DNA of 63,316 nt, the filler included, from Chlamydiia bacterium (GTDB lineage Bacteria > Chlamydiota > Chlamydiia > Chlamydiales > FEN-1388): the NCBI GenBank assembly GCA_903848235.1. It is 12 parts of 12 records of this genome, joined end to end, with 100 filler letters (N's around TTAATTAATTAA, not from the genome) between each part and the next. Parts side by side here need not be neighbours in the genome. Positions count along the whole stretch, not along the records: positions 31,593 to 35,000 come from CAINFV010000234.1; 11 more parts are not named here. One strand, given 5' to 3'. Positions 27,474 to 39,156 of this stretch are shown piece after piece. Positions within the stretch are counted from its first letter, which is position 1. Every line of letters begins with the position of its first letter. Under the pieces are notes generated by a model that saw only the letters and a list, made by a program, of their open reading frames with translations, did no database searches and was not told the origin of the DNA. The translations under genes and the position numbers were made by a program.

Positions 27474-27615
27474 TTGATTGTTCCTCTCATTTTAAGCCTC
27501 GAATATAGAATTATTCTCATTTTTTGGCAACGAAAGTATGCCATTCTGTCTCTATTTCGTATGTAAAATTTAAACTTTAACTTATATACTAAAGTTTAGA
27601 TTACAGAGGTTTTCG

Positions 27616-29426
27616 ATGGCTAGCCCAATGTCAAATTATTCCAACTCCCAAGATTCACAAGACTTCTTAGGGGACTATAGAAAAAAAATTGTAGAAAACG
27701 ACCCCAGATTAGAATTTCACCAAGACGTGATTAAAGATTTCGGCGAGTCGTATGAAAGAGCGTATCAATTATGGAACACGTTTTACGCAGAGGCATATAA
27801 AGACCTGTCTTACTACCTGGGAAACCAATGGAGCCTCGAAGAGCTGGCCTACCTGAACAATCAGAGGCGGTCTTCCTTCACGTACAACAAGATCAGACGC
27901 ATAATTAACCTCGTTCAGGGCTACCAGCGTAAAAACCGCCTTTCTAGCGTAATTAGACCCATTGAGAACGCCTCAGAAGAAACGGCCGAGCAGCTCTCGG
28001 ACTGTCTGCAGTACGTTATGCAATCGGCCGATGGGTATGAGGCAATATCTGACGCATTCAAAGGCGCACTGACGACCGGCTTGTCATTCCTTTCTCCTTG
28101 GATTGACTATCGAAACGACCCAGTATCCGGTGACATTAAATTCCATCGCGACGATTGGAACGCGGTCATCCTCGACCCGTTCTTCACGAAGAAAGACTTG
28201 TCCGACTGCTCTTTTGTTGCTCGACGCAAATTCCTGTCCAGAACGGAGATTATATCGCTGCTTCCTGACAAAGAGGATGTGATTAATTCACTGCCATGGG
28301 GTTCAAGAGACGACAAGTTCACCTATATGCCTTATGCAAGACAATGGGGCATGCAGAAGTTGCTCAACTACACGGAGTATTGGCGCACCAGATGGGAAAA
28401 CAAAGAAGTCCTCGTCGACATGTCAACAGGCGAGACGAAAGAATGGGATGGCGACAAGAAACGCCTTCAGTTATTTAGGCAGCTATACCCTCAACTAGAA
28501 GTGATTCGCAAGCCCGTCAAGACGGTGGAGTTGGGAATCATCGTAGAAGGAGAATTATTACACTATGGAAAAGACCCCTTCGGCCTCAATGAATATCCTT
28601 TTGTGCCGTTTATGGCCATTTTCGAGCCATCCTACGACCTTTTCACTTGGAAAGTGCAATCACTCGTCAGAATCGTGCGAGACCCGCAAACAGAACTCAA
28701 CAAACGCCGCTCCAAGATGGTTGATATCATCGATAATCAGCTTAATAGCGGATGGATAGCCAAGACGAACTCCGTCTCTAACCCAACATCTCTCTACAAA
28801 ACAGGCCAAGGCCAGGTCATATTCCTGAAGCCAGAAGCCCAGATGACGGACATCCAGCGCCTCAACCCCGCTGACATCCCTCCCGCCATGTTCCAACTCG
28901 AGCAGGAATTCGAGAAAGACATCATGGAGATTGCAGGTGTTAACTCCGAACTATTCGGCATGGCCGACAATGACAAGATAGAGACCGCTGGCATGCTTGC
29001 CAAGATGCGCCAAAGCGCTGGCCTTGTGAACCTGCAAGACATCTTCGATGGACTGCGGGATTCTCAGAAGCTGCTCGGGCGCAAAGTCCTCAAGCTGATT
29101 CAATTGAAATATACCCCAGAGAAAATCGAACTCATCACCAAAAAGAAACCATCAGACGAATTTTATAGTAAAACGTTTGCTAAGTATGACGTTGTCGTGG
29201 AAGAGGGTGTTCTGACGGATACCCAACAGCAAACTGAGTACCTGCAACTTAGCGCTTTGAAAATGATGGGTGTCAATGTCACCGACGAGGAGTTAATCGA
29301 CGCGTCCAATCTCCATGGCAAGAAGAAGATGAAAGACCGCATGGCAGCGCAGGCGCAACAAGCGCAACAGGTGCAAGAGATGCAGACGAAGATGGCGATG
29401 GAAAACCAGGCCGTCTTAACCGAAGC
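27616..29426 (+). CDS. Portal protein, P22-like (3' truncated)
   Basis: YYLGNQW, TYNKIRRIINLVQGYQRKNR, SLVRIVRDPQTELNKRRSK, YDVVVEEG. Confidence 0.85.
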
Positions 29427-29526
29427 NNNNNNNNNNNNNNNNNNNNNNNNNNNNNNNNNNNNNNNNNNNNTTAATTAATTAANNNNNNNNNNNNNNNNNN
29501 NNNNNNNNNNNNNNNNNNNNNNNNNN

Positions 29527-29709
29527 ATTACGTAGATCCTCAGTGAGATTGCGAGCTGCTTCTCCCATTACCTCTAGCTGTCTTATGACACCATCTTGAA
29601 GTAACCTGTTCTCCATAAAATCATCATGAGAGACGCCATCTGTGTAGCGCTCTATTTGCACAAACGCATCCATGATATGGTGCAAATAGACTGAATCATC
29701 TTTCTTCAT
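29527..29709 (-). CDS. HepT-like DUF86 ribonuclease toxin (truncated by contig edge)
   Basis: DDSVYLHHI..., QDGVIRQLEVMGEAA. Confidence 0.85.
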
Positions 29710-29998
29710 AGAGCAGAACCAGGTCCTTTTCTGCATAGGGTCGCAAATATGGGCTTAGAGAGCCTTCAGCTATCAATTCTACCTCTCTTCCCAGAACACG
29801 GCTTAGTTCTTCTTCCAAACCAAACCATGCTAAACCAAGTCGGGGACGCTTCTCTGGGGCTTTTAGTTCCACCAGTAGATCGATATCGCTTTCTGGCGTC
29901 TCCTCGCCCCGAGCAAAAGAACCGAAAACTGCAATGCGCTTAACGTATGGCCTGAGCAAAGGCAATATTTTCTCGCTCAGATCCGCAAATCGATTCAT
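29696..29998 (-). CDS. MNT-type minimal nucleotidyltransferase antitoxin
   Basis: VFGSFARGEETPESDIDLLV; overlaps DUF86 gene. Confidence 0.9.
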   Translation of the reverse strand: MNRFADLSEKILPLLRPYVKRIAVFGSFARGEETPESDIDLLVELKAPEKRPRLGLAWFGLEEELSRVLGREVELIAEGSLSPYLRPYAEKDLVLLYEER

Positions 29999-30203
29999 TT
30001 GACCTCCTTTTTATCTAGATATCTGATATCATTCTTATGTTTGGAACTATGCACTTAAATAGATGAGGGAGAGAGGAAAAAGAGCAGTGCTTGGAGAAAT
30101 GCCTCACTTGATTCGTCTTGTGCTCTTGGTCGCATCTGGTCGGGCCAGAGTGTCAGGTGGTGCTGGACTCCGGCGGAGGCAATTTTCAGGGTGCTGGGTT
30201 TTA

Positions 30204-31399
30204 GGGTCGTGTACTTTCTTAACTGAAAGATTTTAATACTACCTCATCAATTAATAAGTTGGGGTAGCGATGAATTCGAATCTTGATGTTTCACTATTTT
30301 GGTGCTGGCAGAAGGATTGTCCCGACTTCGGAAAAAAAGGTGCAGGAAACATAGTTTTGAAAGAACGATATGGGAAGGATAACAGAGCGCTTCTCAAGTG
30401 CAGAACTTGCGGCCATTGCTTCAGCGAAACTCATGGAACGCCGTTCTTCGGCCTTAACACTCCGATTGATGAGGTCTGCCGAACACTAGCTCTGATTCCA
30501 GAGAAGGGAAGCATTCGGGGAGCTGCGCGGATTTCGGGGCATGATAAGGGCACAATATGCAAGTGGGTTGATCTCGCTGGCAAGCACTGCAGAGAAGTGA
30601 CGGATTATTTTTTGAAAGAACTTCGCCTAGATCGCGTGCAGGTTGATGAGATCTGGTCGTATATAAAAAAAGGAGAAAAACGTCGCTGTCAACGATTCGA
30701 AAGAATGCGGTGATGTCTACAGCCTTACTGCAATAAAACCTGACACTCGACTTTTTTTGAGTCATCATGAAGGAAAGAGAACTGCAGAGGATTGTGTCGA
30801 ATTATTTGGCGATATTGAAAGACGTCGCGCAATTGATTCGCCTATTCCTGTATTTACTTCAGATAACTGGGATCCTTTCGAGGAAGGGCTTCTCAATGTT
30901 TATGGCTTTTTTGAAACGCCGCCTTACTGCGGAATCGGAAGAAAGCCTGATCCGATACTGGTTCCTTACCCAAACCTGAAGTACGCAAAGGTGTGCAAGA
31001 AAAGAGAGAAAGGACGACTCGTTGAGGTAATACAACGTGTTGTTTATGGCGATCCGAAAGATGTAATGCACTTACTTGGTGCCGATTCTGGAGGAAAGAT
31101 CAATACGGCATATATCGAGCGGCTGAATCTCACAATTCGCAATTCATTGGCTCGATTCATACGCAAGAGCATGAATTGCAGCAAGATCTTGGGGAGGCAT
31201 ACTCATGCCCTGGACTTTTTCCAAGCTTGGTACAACTTTGTCAAGCCGCATAAGTCACTTCGGCGAAGAATTGATCAAGGAAGGAAGAAATGGATGCAAA
31301 GAACACCTGCGATGGCAGAAGGACTGACTGATCATGTATGGACTATCAAGGAGCTAATGGCATTCAGGATACCAATTCAATGATATGAGTACACGACCC
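30204..31399 (+). mobile_element. IS1-family insertion sequence, archaeal type (orfA 30270-30713, orfB frame to 31383)
   Basis: TIR GGGTCGTGTACT / AGTACACGACCC; Zn-ribbon and HTH, VDEIWS, TSDNW, NTAYIERLNLTIRN DDE motifs. Confidence 0.88.
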
Positions 31400-31592
31400 A
31401 ATTTCCTGGGGTTGAGAAAAGGCATTTTCGGATCAAAGCCCTACTTCTCTTTCGATCCGCCCTCAAACTCCTGGAAGGTGCGTAGCGCCGAANNNNNNNN
31501 NNNNNNNNNNNNNNNNNNNNNNNNNNNNNNNNNNNNTTAATTAATTAANNNNNNNNNNNNNNNNNNNNNNNNNNNNNNNNNNNNNNNNNNNN

Positions 31593-31828
31593 AATTGCTG
31601 TTTCTACCTGTAACGTTCTCCTTGAATTTTGGACTTTTCTTTCCACCCGATTTCTTGTGAAAATTTTGAAGTTTTCAGCTTTTCTTCTTTTGTCTTTGTA
31701 ATCGTCATTCCTGATGAACTCTAATGAGCGAAACTTGTCGAATCGAAAACAAAGACCAATCCCTTTAAAGGATTCCCCCCATTTGCGATCACTTGCCTGC
31801 TTTTTTCCAACAAAGAAAGCATCCACAA
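31593..31828 (+). repeat. 5' pseudo-LTR (second copy 34672-34909)
   Basis: ~237-bp near-identical direct repeat; differences seen are one substitution and two 1-nt indels. Confidence 0.95.
31692..31756 (+). ncRNA. Minimal type I hammerhead ribozyme, copy 1
   Basis: CUGAUGA 31711-17, stem II cuc/gag, GAAAC, GUC site 31737-39, stem I auuc/gaau + ucg/cga + gucuuugu/acaaagac. Confidence 0.82.
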
Positions 31829-31882
31829 AGAGTATTTTTCTGCAAGAAGATCCAATCACGGACCATTTATTTCTCAGAAACA

Positions 31883-32644
31883 ATGGACCGCACCACTAAT
31901 GTCTTGGAAGACACCATTAGTGCACAAATCCGGCAGCTGCGTATTGCAGAGTTCAACCTAATTCAACGAAAGAATAGCTTGATCAAGCTGTTGGCACACC
32001 AGAGCGCGGGGACACTGCCGAAAGACCTGAGTTTTGTTTTCAAAGAAGTTGCTCTTCCGAAGACATTCTCAGCGAACATCGTAGCAGACCTCCACAGCAA
32101 AGAGCAAACAATTCTTCTTGCAGCTAAGAATGAAATACTTGCATTGCGAATCGCGACTTATCAGGAGAACGTAGGAAAATTGGAAAATGAGGCTTTGCAG
32201 ATGAATCAGACCGACAACATCCGCGCAAGCTTCATCACCCAGCTCCCTGAACTAGCATCGCAACCAGACATGCTCAAACAAGTGATCTCGAAGATGATGC
32301 TCCAGAAGTCAGCACTCGAGACCAGAAGCAGAGCCAAAGCAGCAGCAGTTCCGATGATCGTAGAACCAGAACCAGCAGCAGCACCCAACATTGCAGACCT
32401 CTTCAAGCTCGTCACTCAATTGGCGGCTACAGTTTCACTGCTCCAGAAAAACGGAGCTCGGACCTCGGACCGTCACTCCGCACCATCGTCCGGAAACACC
32501 AGAGAGTCGTCTGCGAAGAGAGAACAGCCGAAAAGACCTGCCGAAGTCGACAGATCTCGTTCGCCCCGGCAACCAAGAGGGCAGAGCCCGCGCCACGGAG
32601 ACCGCGATACCGCGAAAACCAAGGAAACCCGCCGAAGACGCTAG
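31883..32644 (+). CDS. Retroelement ORF1: coiled coil plus basic Arg/Ser-rich tail
   Basis: ATG 31883 just after pLTR; helical Q/E/L-rich body; RSRSPRQPRGQSPR tail. Confidence 0.7.
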   Translation: MDRTTNVLEDTISAQIRQLRIAEFNLIQRKNSLIKLLAHQSAGTLPKDLSFVFKEVALPKTFSANIVADLHSKEQTILLAAKNEILALRIATYQENVGKLENEALQMNQTDNIRASFITQLPELASQPDMLKQVISKMMLQKSALETRSRAKAAAVPMIVEPEPAAAPNIADLFKLVTQLAATVSLLQKNGARTSDRHSAPSSGNTRESSAKREQPKRPAEVDRSRSPRQPRGQSPRHGDRDTAKTKETRRRR

Positions 32645-34485
32645 AGCAACTAGCTATAGATAAGTACTCCTGCATCACAAATAAAGGAGTATTCAATCTG
32701 TCAGACTATGCCCTTTCTCCCTTAGAATCTTTAGTCCTTGGCCTCGGCCTCAATTTCATCCCATCCCCTTGTACAAATCCCGCCACTCTTCTCCCTCCCA
32801 TACTAAAATCCATAGCTAAACTCCACCGAACCCTAGAACTAGCCATGTACTTTAAATCTATACCTACTGCCGATCCTACGATTCCTTTCAATCATACGAA
32901 GACCCCTTGGATTCCCAATCCCAGCCCTAACTACTCGGCCTCCTTACAACTGTACATAGACAAAATCACAATCGTAGCCACAGAGACCATTCTCTCATCC
33001 CGCATTCGACTTAACGAAATAGACACCCTCCTGTACAAAACTCTCCTTCACTTGCGTCGTCAGAATCACATTGTCATGAAGCCTGCTGATAAAAATCTCG
33101 GCCTATGTATCCTCAACAGAGTAGACTACATTGACATGTGTATGACCCATTTGAACGATGCCCTTACATACCAACCTGTCCCTAAATACACACACAAAGT
33201 AGTCGTTGACAAATTACGTAAAATAATTCTCTCCGCGGGACGTATGTTTGTAGAAAATAGCATCGACCTAACTCCCCTCTCTAAATCTTTGCTGCAATAT
33301 GAGAACCCAGAAACCTGCAGAATCTCACTCTTTTATTGCCTTCCCAAAGTACATAAGAACCAAGCAAAACCCCCCGGCAGACCCATTGTCTCCTCATGCA
33401 GCTCTCTCACATATCCTGCATCGAAGTATGTAGACCACTGCCTCAGCCCTTTCCTTAAATTCTTAAACACTATATGTCGTTCCTCAAACGACTTCATTCG
33501 ACTGCTCACCTTCACAAAGCAAGCACCGACTGATATCATTCTGTGTGCGGACGTCACTTCTCTCTACCCAAACATCCCCCTGGATTTTGGGCTCGAGAAA
33601 GTGTCTTCCCTACTCAACCATCTAAATCAGATTCACAAGTTAATCCCTCCCAAGGACCTCGTATTCTGCCTTGACCTGATGAACTGGGTGTTATATAACA
33701 ACTATATCTCATTTGCTAATACTACGTACAAACAAATTAAAGGTACAGCGATGGGCACACCTGTCGCTGTCACTTTTGCCCAACTCTTCCTAGCCGCCAT
33801 AGAGCTTCCTATCCTTTCTACTACTCCCTGCACACTCTATCAACGCTATATAGATGACATATGTGCTTTAATCTCTGAATCCGCCGCCTCAGATTTCATT
33901 GCACAATTTAATGCTGTATGCCCATCTATCAAATTAGAAGCAGTCACTATCGGACCTAATGGCATCTTCCTTGACCTTTCCCTCCACGTTGTGAATGGCT
34001 CCACCTCCTACACAATCTATCAGAAACCAGCCAATAAATACCAATATATTCCTTTCCTCTCTGCACACAACCTGTCTGTCTTCTATAATTGGGTGTTTGA
34101 AGAATTGAAGCGATATCGTGTGAAATGCTCTACTCACTCAGACTTCGTCTCTCTTACTCTACTCTTCGCTGAACGCCTTAGAGCTAGAGGCTACCCTCCT
34201 AGAATATTTGCCCTTGCCATGACCAATCTACCATCGCGAGCATCTCTACTCAAACCCATCCTCAACCCCAATAAAATCAATATTAAGCACAAAGCCTTAG
34301 GCCCTGTCCTCACCTTAGCCTTGCCTAGCTTACATCCCAATCCTAGATGGAAACTGCTTCTAGCAATTCCCCCTCAAATATTTTACAACCGTCATTATTT
34401 TGAGGCCTATGGAAATAAACAACTAGTAATTGGAAAGCGCAACCCTCCTAACGTCGCCTCCTATGTCACTCACAGCAAATTATAG
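32251..34485 (+). CDS. Penelope-type reverse transcriptase (frame open from 32251, first ATG 32845; no GIY-YIG)
   Basis: VFNLS..LGLNFIP N-terminal motif upstream of ATG, KPADKN, LPKVHK, GRPIVS, ADVTSLYPNIP, GTAMG, RYIDD, FLDL. Confidence 0.9.
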   Translation, partial: TSIATRHAQTSDLEDDAPEVSTRDQKQSQSSSSSDDRRTRTSSSTQHCRPLQARHSIGGYSFTAPEKRSSDLGPSLRTIVRKHQRVVCEERTAEKTCRSRQISFAPATKRAEPAPRRPRYRENQGNPPKTLEQLAIDKYSCITNKGVFNLSDYALSPLESLVLGLGLNFIPSPCTNPATLLPPILKSIAKLHRTLELAMYFKSIPTADPTIPFNHTKTPWIPNPSPNYSASLQLYIDKITIVATETILSSRIRLNEIDTLLYKTLLHLRRQNHIVMKPADKNLGLCILNRVDYIDMCMTHLNDALTYQPVPKYTHKVVVDKLRKIILSAGRMFVENSIDLTPLSKSLLQYENPETCRISLFYCLPKVHKNQAKPPGRPIVSSCSSLTYPASKYVDHCLSPFLKFLNTICRSSNDFIRLLTFTKQAPTDIILCADVTSLYPNIPLDFGLEKVSSLLNHLNQIHKLIPPKDLVFCLDLMNWVLYNNYISFANTTYKQIKGTAMGTPVAVTFAQLFLAAIELPILSTTPCTLYQRYIDDICALISESAASDFIAQFNAVCPSIKLEAVTIGPNGIFLDLSLHVVNGSTSYTIYQKPANKYQYIPFLSAHNLSVFYNWVFEELKRYRVKCSTHSDFVSLTLLFAERLRARGYPPRIFALAMTNLPSRASLLKPILNPNKINIKHKALGPVLTLALPSLHPNPRWKLLLAIPPQIFYNRHYFEAYGNKQLVIGKRNPPNVASYVTHSKL

Positions 34486-34770
34486 AATACGAGCCCCTCC
34501 TACCCCCACTCCCTCACCTCTCTCTCAACACTACTGCCACTACACTTCATCACTACTATCTACATCCCCTCCAATCCCACTGTCTCTACTATTTCCTGCC
34601 TCTATATCTACACCGTACCTATTTTATTGCTTCGCATGGGGCAACCCCCCCCCCCACGCGCGCGGTCAGAGAATTGCTGTTTCTACCTGTAACGTTCTCC
34701 TTGAATTTTGGACTTTTCTTTCCACCCGATTTCTTGTGAAAACTTTGAAGTTTTCAGCTTTTCTTCTTTT

Positions 34771-34836
34771 GTCTTTGTAATCGTCATTCCTGATGAACTC
34801 TAAATGAGCGAAACTTGTCGAATCGAAAACAAAGAC
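34771..34836 (+). ncRNA. Minimal type I hammerhead ribozyme, copy 2
   Basis: Same core as copy 1; only difference is one extra A in the stem II loop. Confidence 0.82.
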
Positions 34837-35100
34837 CAATCCCTTTAAAGGATTCCCCCCCATTTGCGATCACTTGCCTGCTTTTTTCCAACAAAGAAAG
34901 CATCCACAATGAAGTCAAAAAAATGTTTTTATTTCGGGACGAATTTCGAGGAGAGTGTGCTAAAGGTGAAGTAACCGTTTTTTACGGTCAAAATCAACGG
35001 NNNNNNNNNNNNNNNNNNNNNNNNNNNNNNNNNNNNNNNNNNNNTTAATTAATTAANNNNNNNNNNNNNNNNNNNNNNNNNNNNNNNNNNNNNNNNNNNN

Positions 35101-36007
35101 TAGCTCAGTACGAGTAGCAAAAATCCAAAACTGGACCGTATTTGGCGTGCGTCGAGGATATCGAGGACTGATCTATGGAGAGCTCGATGAAATGGGATCT
35201 CGCTCTGTGTCAAATATTATTCAGCGCGGAGGGACGATTCTCCGAGCATCGCGATGTAAAGAATTTGAGACAGACGATGGGCTGCAGCAGGCAAAAAGAA
35301 CGCTAGAGGCTTTTGGCATCCAAGGCCTGATCGTCATTGGCGGCGACGGCTCATTTCGAGGAGCTGTGGCACTCGCGAAGATCTGGGACGGCCAGATTAT
35401 CGGTGTCCCTGGGACCATTGATAACGATATCTTCGGAACTGATTTCACGATTGGCTATGACACCGCTGTGAACACGGCCGTCGAAGCAATCGATAAAATT
35501 CGAGATACCGCTGATGCACAGGAGAGGTATTTCCTCGTAGAAGTCATGGGGCGAGAAGCTGGGTTTATAGCCCTCGCAGCGGGCCTATCAGGAGGTGCCG
35601 AGGAGATTATGGTTCCTGAAATTCACACGGAACTCTCCGAGATCCATAGACGCCTGATGCAAGGGAAGCAGCGTGGAAAAACATCCAGCATTTTAATCGT
35701 TGCTGAAGGAAACCATGAGGGAAATGCCTTTGAAATCGCAACAAAGCTCAAACTGCTGTGTGGAAGCGAATATCGAGTCGTGGTTCTTGGCCACATTCAG
35801 CGCGGCGGATCCCCTACGGCAAGCGACAGAATCCTTGCCACAAAGCTCGGAGCCTATGCTATCGACGTTTTGACAGAAGGCAAGTCCAACGTCATGGTTG
35901 GCGAGGTGAAAGGAGAGCTTGTCACCACACCTCTAGAGGATACGTGGGGAACGAAAAAGCCTCTTGATCCCTACCTGCTTCATTTAAACTCAGTACTCGA
36001 AACGTAA
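35101..36007 (+). CDS. pfkA: ATP-dependent 6-phosphofructokinase (5' truncated)
   Basis: GGT, IGGDGS, PGTIDND, EVMGR, LGHIQRGG. Confidence 0.92.
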
Positions 36008-36016
36008 ATTAGGCTC

Positions 36017-37144
36017 ATGGAACAATTCTATTCAAAATGGGCTCGCGTCCTGGTGCACTACTGCCTAGAAGTAGCCCCTCGGCAACATTTTGTCATTGCA
36101 GGAGATGTTGAGGCAATGCCTCTTATCAATGCTTGCATGCAAGAAGGGGTTGATGTTGGCGCTTTTTGCGACTATCTGTGTATTTCAGGGCATCACAAAG
36201 AGATGCTCTTTGCGCGAGGCCATGACGATCAGCTCGAACGCACACCAGCTCTCTGGCTGAATGCTGTATCGACGTGTGATAAATACCTCATTATTTCAAG
36301 CGCTACGAACACCAGAGCACTGTCTCAATATCCCAAAGAACGGCAGGTGCTTTATTCGAAGGGATACTCCCCTGTCGTCGATACGATTATTCGGCGACGC
36401 CATGAAGGAAATTTTTCTTGGTGTCTGACCCAATTTCCATCCCCTGCACTAGCCCAAGAGGCGAACATGGGGACTCTCGACTATCAAAAGCTCACTGCTG
36501 CTGCCTGCTTCCTCGACAGAACAGATCCCGTGGCACAATGGAAAGCGCTTGCCCAAAGGCAGCAAAAACTCGCCGATAGACTCTCTACGGGCACTATACT
36601 TCGCTTTGAAAATGATGAAGGCACCTGTCTTGAAGTCGACATTCAAGGGATGCGATGGGTGAATAACGCTGGAAAGACTAACTTTCCAGATGGAGAAGTG
36701 TTCACAGGGCCAAATCTTTCTGCCCCCAACGGCGGTGTCAACGGAACTGTCCGTATCACGTTCCCAACAATTATGAAACAGGTCGAAGTATCGGGGATTG
36801 AGTTAACGTTTGAGAAGGGAGCTGTCGTCAAGGCATCAGCAAAAGAAAATGATGCTTTCCTCCAGTCCATGATCGATCTCGATCCTGGCAGCCGATATGT
36901 TGGGGAAATAGCACTAGGAACGAACTATGCAATTTCGACGGGGACGAGGAATATCTTATTCGATGAGAAGATCGGCGGGACTTTCCATTTAGCTTTAGGG
37001 AAAGGCTATCCTGAGACAGGGAATACCAATCAGTCAGCTCTTCACTGGGACCTTGTCACCGACATGAGGCAGTCTGGGAAGATCTTCCTCGACGACGAAC
37101 TCATCTCTGATAAAGGACAGTTTGTCGATGCAGAATGGCCTTAG
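36017..37144 (+). CDS. Peptidase M29 (AmpS/AmpT-type aminopeptidase)
   Basis: NFPDGEVF, GEIALG, LFDEKIGGTFHLALG, NQSALHWD. Confidence 0.9.
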   Translation: MEQFYSKWARVLVHYCLEVAPRQHFVIAGDVEAMPLINACMQEGVDVGAFCDYLCISGHHKEMLFARGHDDQLERTPALWLNAVSTCDKYLIISSATNTRALSQYPKERQVLYSKGYSPVVDTIIRRRHEGNFSWCLTQFPSPALAQEANMGTLDYQKLTAAACFLDRTDPVAQWKALAQRQQKLADRLSTGTILRFENDEGTCLEVDIQGMRWVNNAGKTNFPDGEVFTGPNLSAPNGGVNGTVRITFPTIMKQVEVSGIELTFEKGAVVKASAKENDAFLQSMIDLDPGSRYVGEIALGTNYAISTGTRNILFDEKIGGTFHLALGKGYPETGNTNQSALHWDLVTDMRQSGKIFLDDELISDKGQFVDAEWP

Positions 37145-37305
37145 GAGTCAAATTTAAATAAACTAGACAATCTGGGCGAGCGAGATCATTGAGATACGAA
37201 CGATCGAGACAAGCCCCCATAGCGTGCTATGGGCGAGGAACGGTCGCGCGCAGATCAATCGGTCGCAGCCGGCCAGATTGTCTAGATTATTTAAACTTGA
37301 CTCCT
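37143..37305. mobile_element. Palindromic MITE (family A core, different TIR)
   Basis: aggagtcaaatttaaataaactagacaatctgg / ccagattgtctagattatttaaacttgactcct; overlaps upstream stop codon. Confidence 0.78.
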
Positions 37306-37435
37306 TAGCTCGACATGGATTCATAAGGACTCACCAATTAAGCGCCTGTTTATCCATCAGATCTATTTTCTTGACATAACTGGAATTTTGGTACAATATT
37401 ACGGATATAGATAAAATAGTCCGAGGTTTTGTGCC

Positions 37436-38050
37436 ATGAAGAAAAAATCAAACCTTGACACAGCTGTTGCAGCTTTTCGAAAGGCGGGAGGCGTTCTCAC
37501 TATGTCAGAAGCCATGGCCCTTGGTATGCATCGTCGAGAACTGTATACATTACGCGACAGAGGGGACCTAGAAACTATCTGTAGAGGGCTGTATCGTCTT
37601 ATCGAAATGCCGGAACCTTCGTTTCCAGACTTTGTTTGTGTAGCGAAAAAAATCCCCAGGGGGGTCATATGTCTGATTTCAGCCTTGGCATTTCATGAAA
37701 TCACCACTCAAATACCACATTTCGTCCACGTCGCCTTACCCCGCTCTGCTCATAAACCGCTGATTTCTTACCCCCCCATGCGATATTTTTGGTTCACTGA
37801 GAGACTTCTAACGACGGGGGTTGAAGAACACACTGTCAACGGCTGCACCATTAGAATTTTTGACGCCGAAAAAACACTTATCGATTGCGTTAAGTTCCGA
37901 AATAAAGTCGGAATGGATATCGTTCTAGAGGCACTGAGGATGTATTGGCAGAGCGAAAAAGCAGATCTTGAGAAGCTTTTTGAATATGCAAAATTATTTC
38001 GTGTCAAGAAAATCTTAAAACCGATTATGGAGGCAATCGTCAGTGGGTAA
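37436..38050 (+). CDS. Type IV TA antitoxin, AbiEi family
   Basis: RGLYRL, GVICLISALAFHEITTQIP, EKTLIDC. Confidence 0.9.
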   Translation: MKKKSNLDTAVAAFRKAGGVLTMSEAMALGMHRRELYTLRDRGDLETICRGLYRLIEMPEPSFPDFVCVAKKIPRGVICLISALAFHEITTQIPHFVHVALPRSAHKPLISYPPMRYFWFTERLLTTGVEEHTVNGCTIRIFDAEKTLIDCVKFRNKVGMDIVLEALRMYWQSEKADLEKLFEYAKLFRVKKILKPIMEAIVSG

Positions 38051-38741
38051 ATCAACTGAAAACCCGAAAAAGAACCTTGGCGAATCGATACGTCAACGAT
38101 TAAAGAATCTTTCGAAAATCAGAAACCGTCCCTTCGATGAAATCCTTCGATATTATGCAATAGAGCGATTTTTGTACCGTCTGAGCAGGAGCTCCTATGC
38201 TGAGAAATTTTTTCTCAAAGGAGGTCTCATGCTGAAAGTGTGGGATTCTATGAGCCACCGCGCCACCATGGACATCGATCTGCTTGCTCGAACATCAAAT
38301 CAGATTCAAAATTTACAAGGAATCATCTCTGACGTTGCTGCAATTCCCTACGAGGAAGATGCTATAGCATTTGACACGCAGAACCTCATTCTCCAAAACA
38401 CACAAACTACCGGAGACTACAACGGCGTAAGCGCCAGTTTTTCTGCAAAATTGTTTACAACCAAAATGCCTGTTCTTATCGACATTGGGTTTAATGATAT
38501 CATCATTCCTAAGGCTCAAAAAATTCAATACCCTACACTCTTGGGAATGCCCGAGCCCACTTTGTGGGGGTATACACTAGAGACGGTTATCGCCGAAAAG
38601 TTAGAGGCTATTGTAAAACTTGCCCTGATCAATACACGAATGAAGGATTTTTATGATCTGTGGACGATCCTACGACACCATGAGATACAGCCTGACAGAC
38701 TGAAAGTAGCCATATCAGAGGTGTTTGCGAACCGGGGTTAG
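38043..38741 (+). CDS. AbiEii-family nucleotidyltransferase toxin, probably C-terminally truncated
   Basis: ERFLYRLS, LKGG, RATMDIDLL, AEKLEA, TRMKDFYD; stop codon supplied by a repeat end. Confidence 0.85.
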   Translation: MGKSTENPKKNLGESIRQRLKNLSKIRNRPFDEILRYYAIERFLYRLSRSSYAEKFFLKGGLMLKVWDSMSHRATMDIDLLARTSNQIQNLQGIISDVAAIPYEEDAIAFDTQNLILQNTQTTGDYNGVSASFSAKLFTTKMPVLIDIGFNDIIIPKAQKIQYPTLLGMPEPTLWGYTLETVIAEKLEAIVKLALINTRMKDFYDLWTILRHHEIQPDRLKVAISEVFANRG

Positions 38742-39156
38742 TAACTGCTCGATAAAATATGGACATATCTGGATAAACCTACCCTTTTTGTCCAGATTTT
38801 GACTAGCAAAAAAAACATACTGCACATCTCCAGATCAAGGCATCTTTGTTTTTTCGTGCTATAGTTTAAACAAANNNNNNNNNNNNNNNNNNNNNNNNNN
38901 NNNNNNNNNNNNNNNNNNTTAATTAATTAANNNNNNNNNNNNNNNNNNNNNNNNNNNNNNNNNNNNNNNNNNNNTGTTATTCCATACTCTAAAGCTGAAA
39001 TAGCTTCTTTACGAGTTTTGTACTCTTTTAAATATTGTTGTGCAGTAGATTCAGGGCCTTGTACTATTTTTTGATATTTGCTTGACAGGCTTTTTTTATA
39101 GAGTAAGTTACGATAGCATTATAATGCTATCAATTATAACTAAAATAAAGGGAAGG

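Follow-up and report, generated by a model that had tools for sequence, protein, structure and literature searches.

A variant of the minimal hammerhead motif in the repeats of an endonuclease-deficient Penelope-like element filed in a Chlamydiia genome assembly

The contig CAINFV010000234.1 (C234, 3.4 kb) of a bacterial metagenome-assembled genome (MAG) holds, as its sole content, a 3080-nt endonuclease-deficient (EN-deficient) Penelope-like element (PLE) with a deviant hammerhead motif in each of two direct repeats. According to the reading that we prefer, with a probability of roughly 0.5, this is an intact element, likely from a mis-binned freshwater eukaryote, whose motif would likely be an attenuated, dimer-dependent ribozyme cutting a minority of transcripts.

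Coordinates refer to the whole stretch of DNA that was analysed (the window, 63,316 nt), in which contigs are chained with N spacers; C234 occupies positions 31593–35000 (3408 nt). The assembly (GCA_903848235.1; 2.35 Mb, 284 contigs) is filed as the MAG of a Chlamydiia bacterium, and neither blastn nor tblastn found a second copy of the element in its 2.35 Mb. Neighbouring contigs in the window are unrelated to C234 and encode a P22-like portal protein (27574–29426), an IS1-like transposase (30667–31383) and a phosphofructokinase, while the next contig carries a 39-bp inverted repeat between genes (37140–37308; 90% complementary, 91-nt spacer).

Table 1. Features of the C234 element and its flank, in window coordinates.
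Feature	Position	Strand	Remarks
Pseudo-LTR, copy 1	31593–31828	+	3' end of the upstream unit, cut by the contig start; direct repeat of 34672–34909
Type I hammerhead, copy 1	31692–31756	+	Predicted cut after C31739; 30.6 bits
Parts of hammerhead copy 1	CUGAUGA core 31711–31717; A10.1 31718; C11.1 31729; GAAA 31730–31733; CUUG 31734–31737; C17 31739	+	
Predicted small hairpin AAUCC/GGAUU	31758–31774	+	Just 3' of the hammerhead; from the fold of the equivalent copy 2 stretch
CGATCAC motif	31786–31792	+	Downstream of the hammerhead, common to relatives; CGA(T/C)CAC in 11 of 15 loci examined, C234 included
Pyrimidine-rich AG/ATCC, resembling a 3' splice or trans-splice acceptor	31830–31855	+	33 nt upstream of the ORF1 ATG; putative function
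ORF1, 253 aa	31883–32644	+	Predicted long helical coiled-coil region and basic disordered tail
PLE-type RT frame, 744 aa stop to stop	32251–34485	+	DKN motif, GTAMG, YIDD, thumb; no GIY-YIG endonuclease
Likely −1 frameshift site G AAA AAC	32446–32452	+	Would join ORF1 to RT in a fusion of about 867 aa
Pseudo-LTR, copy 2	34672–34909	+	34909 is the element 3' end, 90 nt after C17
Type I hammerhead, copy 2	34771–34836	+	Predicted cut after C34819; 29.4 bits
Predicted 9-bp hairpin	34879–34902	+	Directly before the element 3' end; fold prediction
Flank	34910–35000		Likely a host repeat family, not telomeric repeat

An earlier note on this DNA had described a minimal hammerhead in each repeat, and every part that it named was recovered in its place, including an A–C apposition. 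Stem I consists of four base pairs (auuc/gaau) extended by ucg/cga and an outer 8-bp stem (gucuuugu/acaaagac), and stem II of three (CUC/GAG) around a UAAU loop, with A31718 facing C31729 at its base. Copy 2 differs from copy 1 only by one A in loop II, again in agreement with the note. Both copies match the consensus core (C3 U4 G5 A6 N7 G8 A9 G12 A13 A14 A15 U16 H17) at 13 of 13 positions, and the 1.1–2.1 (C–G) and A15.1–U16.1 pairs are intact.

The identity of the motif was confirmed with a covariance model (R1) of the motifs of 28 relatives, from which the C234 element was left out. Copy 1 scored 30.6 bits (rough E 3.8e-6) and copy 2 29.4 bits (rough E 8.7e-6), the next-best match in the 63-kb window reached 11.5 bits, and the two copies rank first and second across the 2.35-Mb assembly. 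Canonical relatives score 45–64 bits under R1, most of them being part of its training set. A Rfam scan of positions 28000–39000 gave no hammerhead family match at E ≤ 5. The loose core pattern alone was not above chance in the window (34 matches versus 20 ± 9.5), so the significance rests on the covariance model. No antisense hammerhead was found in the C234 stretch or the relatives. By this search of both copies with relatives only, the motif is a type I minimal PLE hammerhead homologue, and almost certainly a genuine one of the dimer type.

The homology extends to 14 of the 15 family-conserved columns. G10.1–C11.1 and a palindromic loop 3 are listed as conserved features of minimal PLE hammerheads (PMC4209133). 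C234 has A·C in place of the G10.1–C11.1 pair that opens stem II, and CUUG in place of the palindromic 15.2–16.2 pair and loop 3 from which the dimer helix III is built. Judged by its sequence, the motif lacks two of the features that define the canonical minimal form and is filed as a variant. It resembles the PLE pseudo-LTR hammerheads described by Cervera and de la Peña (2014, PMC4209133) in topology, sense strand, 2-bp helix III and the presence of one copy per repeat about 3 kb apart, as in the dimer and circle model, but differs from them in lacking G10.1–C11.1, the palindromic loop 3 and the extra base before a paired 10.1. The hammerheads known from PLEs of fungi and protists carry a long helix III and work as monomers (PMC4209133), whereas the C234 clade is of the short palindromic type, with a helix III of only 2 bp in C234 itself.

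To compare the motif with its family, one hammerhead descriptor, which demanded the outer but not the inner pair of helix III, was run on both strands of 89 related loci. It gave 63 sense and 0 antisense matches in 53 of the 89 loci, comprising 45 distinct motifs. G10.1–C11.1 is kept in 44 of them (30 directly, 14 after one extra base), the remaining one being a spurious second parse at L048. The four-base insert between GAAA and UH is a palindrome in 32 of 33 cases (24 CUAG, 6 CGCG, 1 CCGG and 1 CAUG). The inner bases of helix III thus covary as UA, GC, CG and AU, all four Watson–Crick types; since they can pair only between two copies, this four-way covariation gives comparative support for dimer action in the family. 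In a 35-row alignment 93.5% of the cells were paired versus 65% after shuffling, a figure inflated by stems I and II having been partly selected for.

Among the loci compared, A10.1·C11.1 and CUUG are confined to the C234 lineage; A10.1·C11.1 occurs in none of the 45 relative motifs. The descriptor admits such deviant motifs, both C234 copies being among its 9 matches in the assembly, so the search itself does not account for their absence from relatives. The core conservation in homologues that the earlier note had set as a test therefore holds for the core itself and fails at the two atypical positions. Other forms of the motif were observed among the relatives: a hammerhead with U3–A8 core covariation (UUGACAA; L003:1690-1742), and two hammerheads 176 nt apart in one element (L023:2627-2855, L052:919-1147, L087:3105-6211). 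L087 also holds tandem units of 930 nt that have sequence in common with the hammerhead region, in a retrozyme-like manner. A distant clade (L056, L057, L061, L062, L065, L067, L071, L075 and L077) has a long helix III, one additional base preceding G10.1 and a U17, a monomer-type architecture.

In a quick maximum-likelihood tree of 60 RTs (restricted to loci whose open RT was long enough, without duplicates and without L089 and L091), the C234 RT is sister to L002 (SH-aLRT 99) within an 11-row clade, the other 10 rows of which all have G–C at 10.1–11.1 and a palindrome. Given this nested position, both deviations look derived. They are unchanged in four of four DNA runs (X1–X4; depth up to 52), in which other nearby sites vary; the contigs over the motif show no other letter and are all of the copy 2 form. 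The same letters in four runs indicate that the deviations are not assembly errors. The elements in these runs are nearly identical (one run may be the source sample itself, and three may stem from a single campaign), and both repeat copies come from one template, so the fixation spans little time. The change at 10.1 keeps a purine, and two random changes among 17 constrained positions would miss all 11 catalytic-core ones in 15 of 136 cases (about 0.11). Within the RT-only region, a partial list of variants contains 7 synonymous and 9 non-synonymous codons, with no clear sign of strong selection.

The layout of the element follows that of EN-deficient PLEs with hammerhead-bearing pseudo-LTRs in tandem or partial-tandem arrangement, and the C234 repeats are pseudo-LTRs of such a unit. 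They differ at 3 positions, and the two C17 positions lie 3080 nt apart, which bears out the unit length proposed earlier. The description of the repeats as terminal needs amending: the direct repeat pair is real, while copy 1 begins at the contig edge, so the repeats are not defined termini. The pyrimidine-rich AG/ATCC site, similar versions of which occur in 10 of 12 loci examined (C234 included), resembles a splice or spliced-leader acceptor and could serve to cap ribozyme-cut RNA. CGATCAC together with AG/ATCC, the latter 25–43 nt before the ORF1 ATG, was also observed in L002, L009, L013, L014, L018, L041, L042 and L048.

Both ORFs of the C234 element are open. The AlphaFold model of ORF1 (mean pLDDT 76) has helices at residues 2–42, 64–108 and 128–155, and no significant match was found in Pfam, in the Atlas or among PDB folds (fold search E ≤ 0.001). 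The putative slippery heptamer falls on the sole invariant column (N190) of a 16-row ORF1 alignment. Among 22 relatives chosen from the 89 loci for room upstream, ORF1 overlaps RT in the −1 frame in 21 and a canonical slippery heptamer is present in 16, as in the published scheme of EN-deficient PLEs with their two overlapping frames (PMC8557442, Fig. 1). G AAA AAC departs from the commoner A AAA AAC, T TTA AAC and G GGA AAC, and possible stems lie directly after it. The RT carries the DKN motif, core motifs and thumb of PLE-type RTs (motif names from PMC13159263). No GIY-YIG endonuclease was found in the whole C234 unit, by loose pattern in the 89 loci, or among precomputed Pfam domains of 120 listed RT homologues (lengths 300–956 searched). 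Within that length range, 904 of 7999 candidates scored were RT homologues at E ≤ 0.001; the best non-self ones are 44–47% identical, and a PDB sequence search returned only a weak RT match.

Among the closest described systems, Athena/Terminon elements of bdelloid rotifers likewise have no endonuclease, a coiled-coil ORF1, an RT made by likely frameshift, and a hammerhead close to the 3' end, shortly upstream of the attachment point (PMC8557442, PMC6431247); in C234 the coiled coil and the frameshift into RT are predictions. C234 differs from them in its 3.08-kb unit, its lack of a reverse-complement telomeric stretch and its non-telomeric flank, the likeness being one of features; its relatives abut CCCTAA, and Athena/Terminon ACACCC/TCACCC. 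Coprina EN-deficient PLEs (fungi, diatoms, Selaginella) also have no endonuclease and attach to telomeres as the C234 relatives do, and a two-ORF Coprina is known (PMC13159263). In L028 and L033, related RTs stand amid several long co-oriented ORFs without Pfam match, with no hammerhead detected, in a Terminon-like layout.

The ends of the elements bear on the RNA that is copied. Element ends lie 50–97 nt past C17 in seven relative loci and 90 nt past it in C234; telomeric arrays start 50–73 nt after C17 in five loci, and flank junctions lie 95–97 nt after C17 in L004 and L005. Such ends could not be copied from a linear unit that stops at C17, so the RT template would be uncut or re-ligated RNA. 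A template spanning the cut site fits a circle and equally an uncut read-through transcript. Since it must keep the cut site intact, a weak ribozyme would be tolerable and cost little. Internal initiation has been shown for an anole PLE (PMC11167929), and attachment just downstream of the hammerhead was described for Terminons (PMC6431247).

The C234 copy contains no TTAGGG-type hexamer or stretch and shows no telomeric attachment. Among relatives a telomeric hexamer lies within 140 nt downstream in 16 of 34 versus 5 of 33 upstream, while L004 and L005, like C234, end in non-telomeric DNA; EN-deficient families departing from the telomeric rule have been noted (PMC8557442). Positions 34941–35000 are matched by several different contigs in X1–X3, and one X1 record with the flank loops back into itself about every 674 nt. 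The flank appears as a variable repeat family with A/T tracts, and the loose ends beyond it contain one CCCTAA. An EN-deficient member beside long ankyrin-repeat ORFs (L005:3050-6722) represents an insertion without telomeric repeat.

These junctions also weigh on a very improbable alternative, namely that the element is an extrachromosomal retro-replicon, a 3080-nt circle of DNA or RNA, and not a chromosomal transposon. In its favour, position 34802 is joined to 31723 in X1 and X3, with X1 forming a closed record of 3110 nt; 27 of 88 loci are likewise closed on themselves, and most of the 120 listed homologues come from contigs about as long as one unit. Such a cycle, however, arises from any repeat that exceeds the assembly word in length, and the closed X1 cycle was rejected as proof of a circle, since the graph would be the same. 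Junctions into flanks or telomeric arrays were observed in C234, L004, L005 and L017, diverged tandem copies occur in L014 and L086, variants roughly 86–95% identical co-occur in one run, and no relative was found among viral contigs.

How strongly the C234 motif would cut was approached through predicted folding. The single-strand minimum-free-energy structure is a UCGUCA/UGAUGA hairpin that hides the core (−15.4 versus −11.9 kcal/mol for the hammerhead). The hexamer of the dimer helix III, with two central U·U mismatches, has a predicted energy of +0.3 kcal/mol in C234 versus −4.6 to −8.3 in four palindromic relatives. The best cofold is more stable than the active dimer by 11.7 kcal/mol (the median gap in 27 relatives is 7.2, and a single relative has a larger one); with two monomers as the reference, 6 of the 27 are as unfavourable as C234. 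Stem I probability is at most 0.04 in 7 of 26 canonical relatives. Some canonical relatives thus fold poorly as well, and folding predictions discriminate poorly. With this reservation, the deviations weaken the predicted dimer, and weak cutting is predicted for the C234 hammerhead; low activity, even in dimeric form, has been reported for minimal hammerheads of PLEs (PMC4209133).

Perreault et al. (2011, PMC3088659) reported a natural hammerhead in which stem II opens with a U10.1–U11.1 mismatch, at the most conserved pair, as in C234; here the mismatch is A·C, not U·U, and is combined with a 2-bp non-palindromic helix III. In that paper U–U is the best tolerated mispair at 10.1–11.1, and mispaired matches in repeats were treated as mostly cryptic mutants and discarded. 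No natural A10.1·C11.1 hammerhead was found in the literature searched, although the survey of PLE variants by Lünse et al., outside it, may contain one, and no value for position 10.1 was found in an eLife mutagenesis study (PMC9901934). Dimer action, as the earlier note proposed, is supported for the family by the inner helix III covariation and weakened for the C234 copy, in which CUUG breaks the palindrome, a point that the note had missed: the missing 10.1–11.1 pair, the weak dimer helix III and the core-masking hairpin may add up as three handicaps against activity.

If these handicaps were decisive, the ribozyme would be vestigial: with G10.1 and the palindrome lost it would not cleave, and the element would spread via uncut read-through transcripts or DNA-level amplification of arrays. 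This is distinctly less probable than attenuation. In its favour, the two deviations occur in none of the close relatives and the copies score about 30 bits against 45–64 for canonical ones (most of them in the training set); it also agrees with the predicted hairpin and weak dimer, with an RT template that needs no cut, and with the proliferation of Naiad and most Chlamys PLEs without canonical hammerheads (PMC8557442). Against it, the catalytic core, stem I, the 3-bp stem II and the 8-bp outer stem are all intact, and the poor folding is shared by some canonical relatives, as the same 7 of 26 (stem I) and 6 of 27 (against two monomers) show.

The CUUG insert can be read in another way, which we consider quite unlikely: as a hairpin with a two-base loop (C–G closing UU), it would let helix III fold within one copy with no partner. 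In molecular dynamics, C and G of a CUUG tetraloop pair in about 57–65% of the ensemble (PMC10401711), although that tetraloop had a G–C closing pair and a 5-bp stem, and in C234 only A15.1–U16.1 closes it. The outer 8-bp stem, predicted with a probability of 1.0 in the C234 monomer, would pre-organise the monomer, and monomer-type long helix III exists in the distant clade (L056–L080 and others); however, the monomer prefers the inactive hairpin, and a monomeric fold leaves A10.1·C11.1 unexplained.

The host of the element is likely a freshwater eukaryote, with the contig mis-binned into the bacterial MAG. Eleven fetched related loci hold tandem CCCTAA, always on the sense strand, and Atlas clusters of RT look-alikes are 95–100% eukaryotic where taxa are recorded. 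The RT is absent from 18 of 18 genomes of the MAG's own family, and among 30 relative genomes there was one weak partial match (23% identity, E 1.6e-4). Runs with at least half of the element's words come from pond and freshwater-sediment metagenomes; in three RNA runs the share is only 5–8%, which is no evidence of expression. Related RT matches were observed in nine GTDB MAGs (L081–L089), including a tandem array in a 99.5-kb contig (L086) and one marginal match of 23 residues.

A chance motif, an assembly artefact or a genuine bacterial element is barely credible and already largely refuted. The filing in a bacterial MAG, a tetranucleotide composition that does not flag C234 as foreign (r 0.79 versus a median of 0.83) and the nine related loci in MAGs would accord with it. 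Those matches, however, are scattered over unrelated phyla, mostly on short contigs, which suggests recurrent eukaryotic contamination; the strand skew of the RT (−0.36) is more extreme than in any of the 1284 other assembly windows, the same letters recur in independent assemblies, and the covariance score and the position of the motif speak against chance. In practical terms, C234 is likely eukaryotic contamination in a MAG and its motif not a bacterial ribozyme.

Under the preferred reading of an attenuated ribozyme, a read-through transcript of tandem units would bring two hammerheads together, and helix III would form across the two copies despite its two central U·U mismatches. An occasional cut after C31739 and C34819 would give 3080-nt units able to ligate into circles. 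The RT would be translated through the −1 frameshift from ORF1 and would begin cDNA synthesis at a free chromosomal 3' end, on RNA that is uncut or circular, some 90 nt downstream of where the ribozyme cuts; by running for more than one unit it would regenerate the pseudo-LTRs. A bolder and rather unlikely version is that a currently spreading EN-less PLE lineage left telomeres for a host satellite, and that an active A10.1·C11.1/CUUG hammerhead, gated by the hairpin, makes 3080-nt circles as the RT template. If true, C234 would be part of a large, as yet uncharted freshwater clade of EN-deficient PLEs with two ORFs and a frameshift.

Hammerheads in PLE repeats, their dimer cleavage and the circular-RNA idea have already been published (PMC4209133; PMC6765202), and what is new here is the comparison with relatives. 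The role of PLE hammerheads is debated between processing, circularisation and mere parasitism (PMC8557442, PMC4209133), and C234 with its canonical sister L002 forms a natural pair for the question of whether PLEs need their ribozyme. If the deviant motif cleaves, the tolerated core widens to A·C at 10.1–11.1, a form rejected by standard filters and missed by Rfam here. If it does not, an intact multicopy EN-deficient PLE has spread without cleavage.
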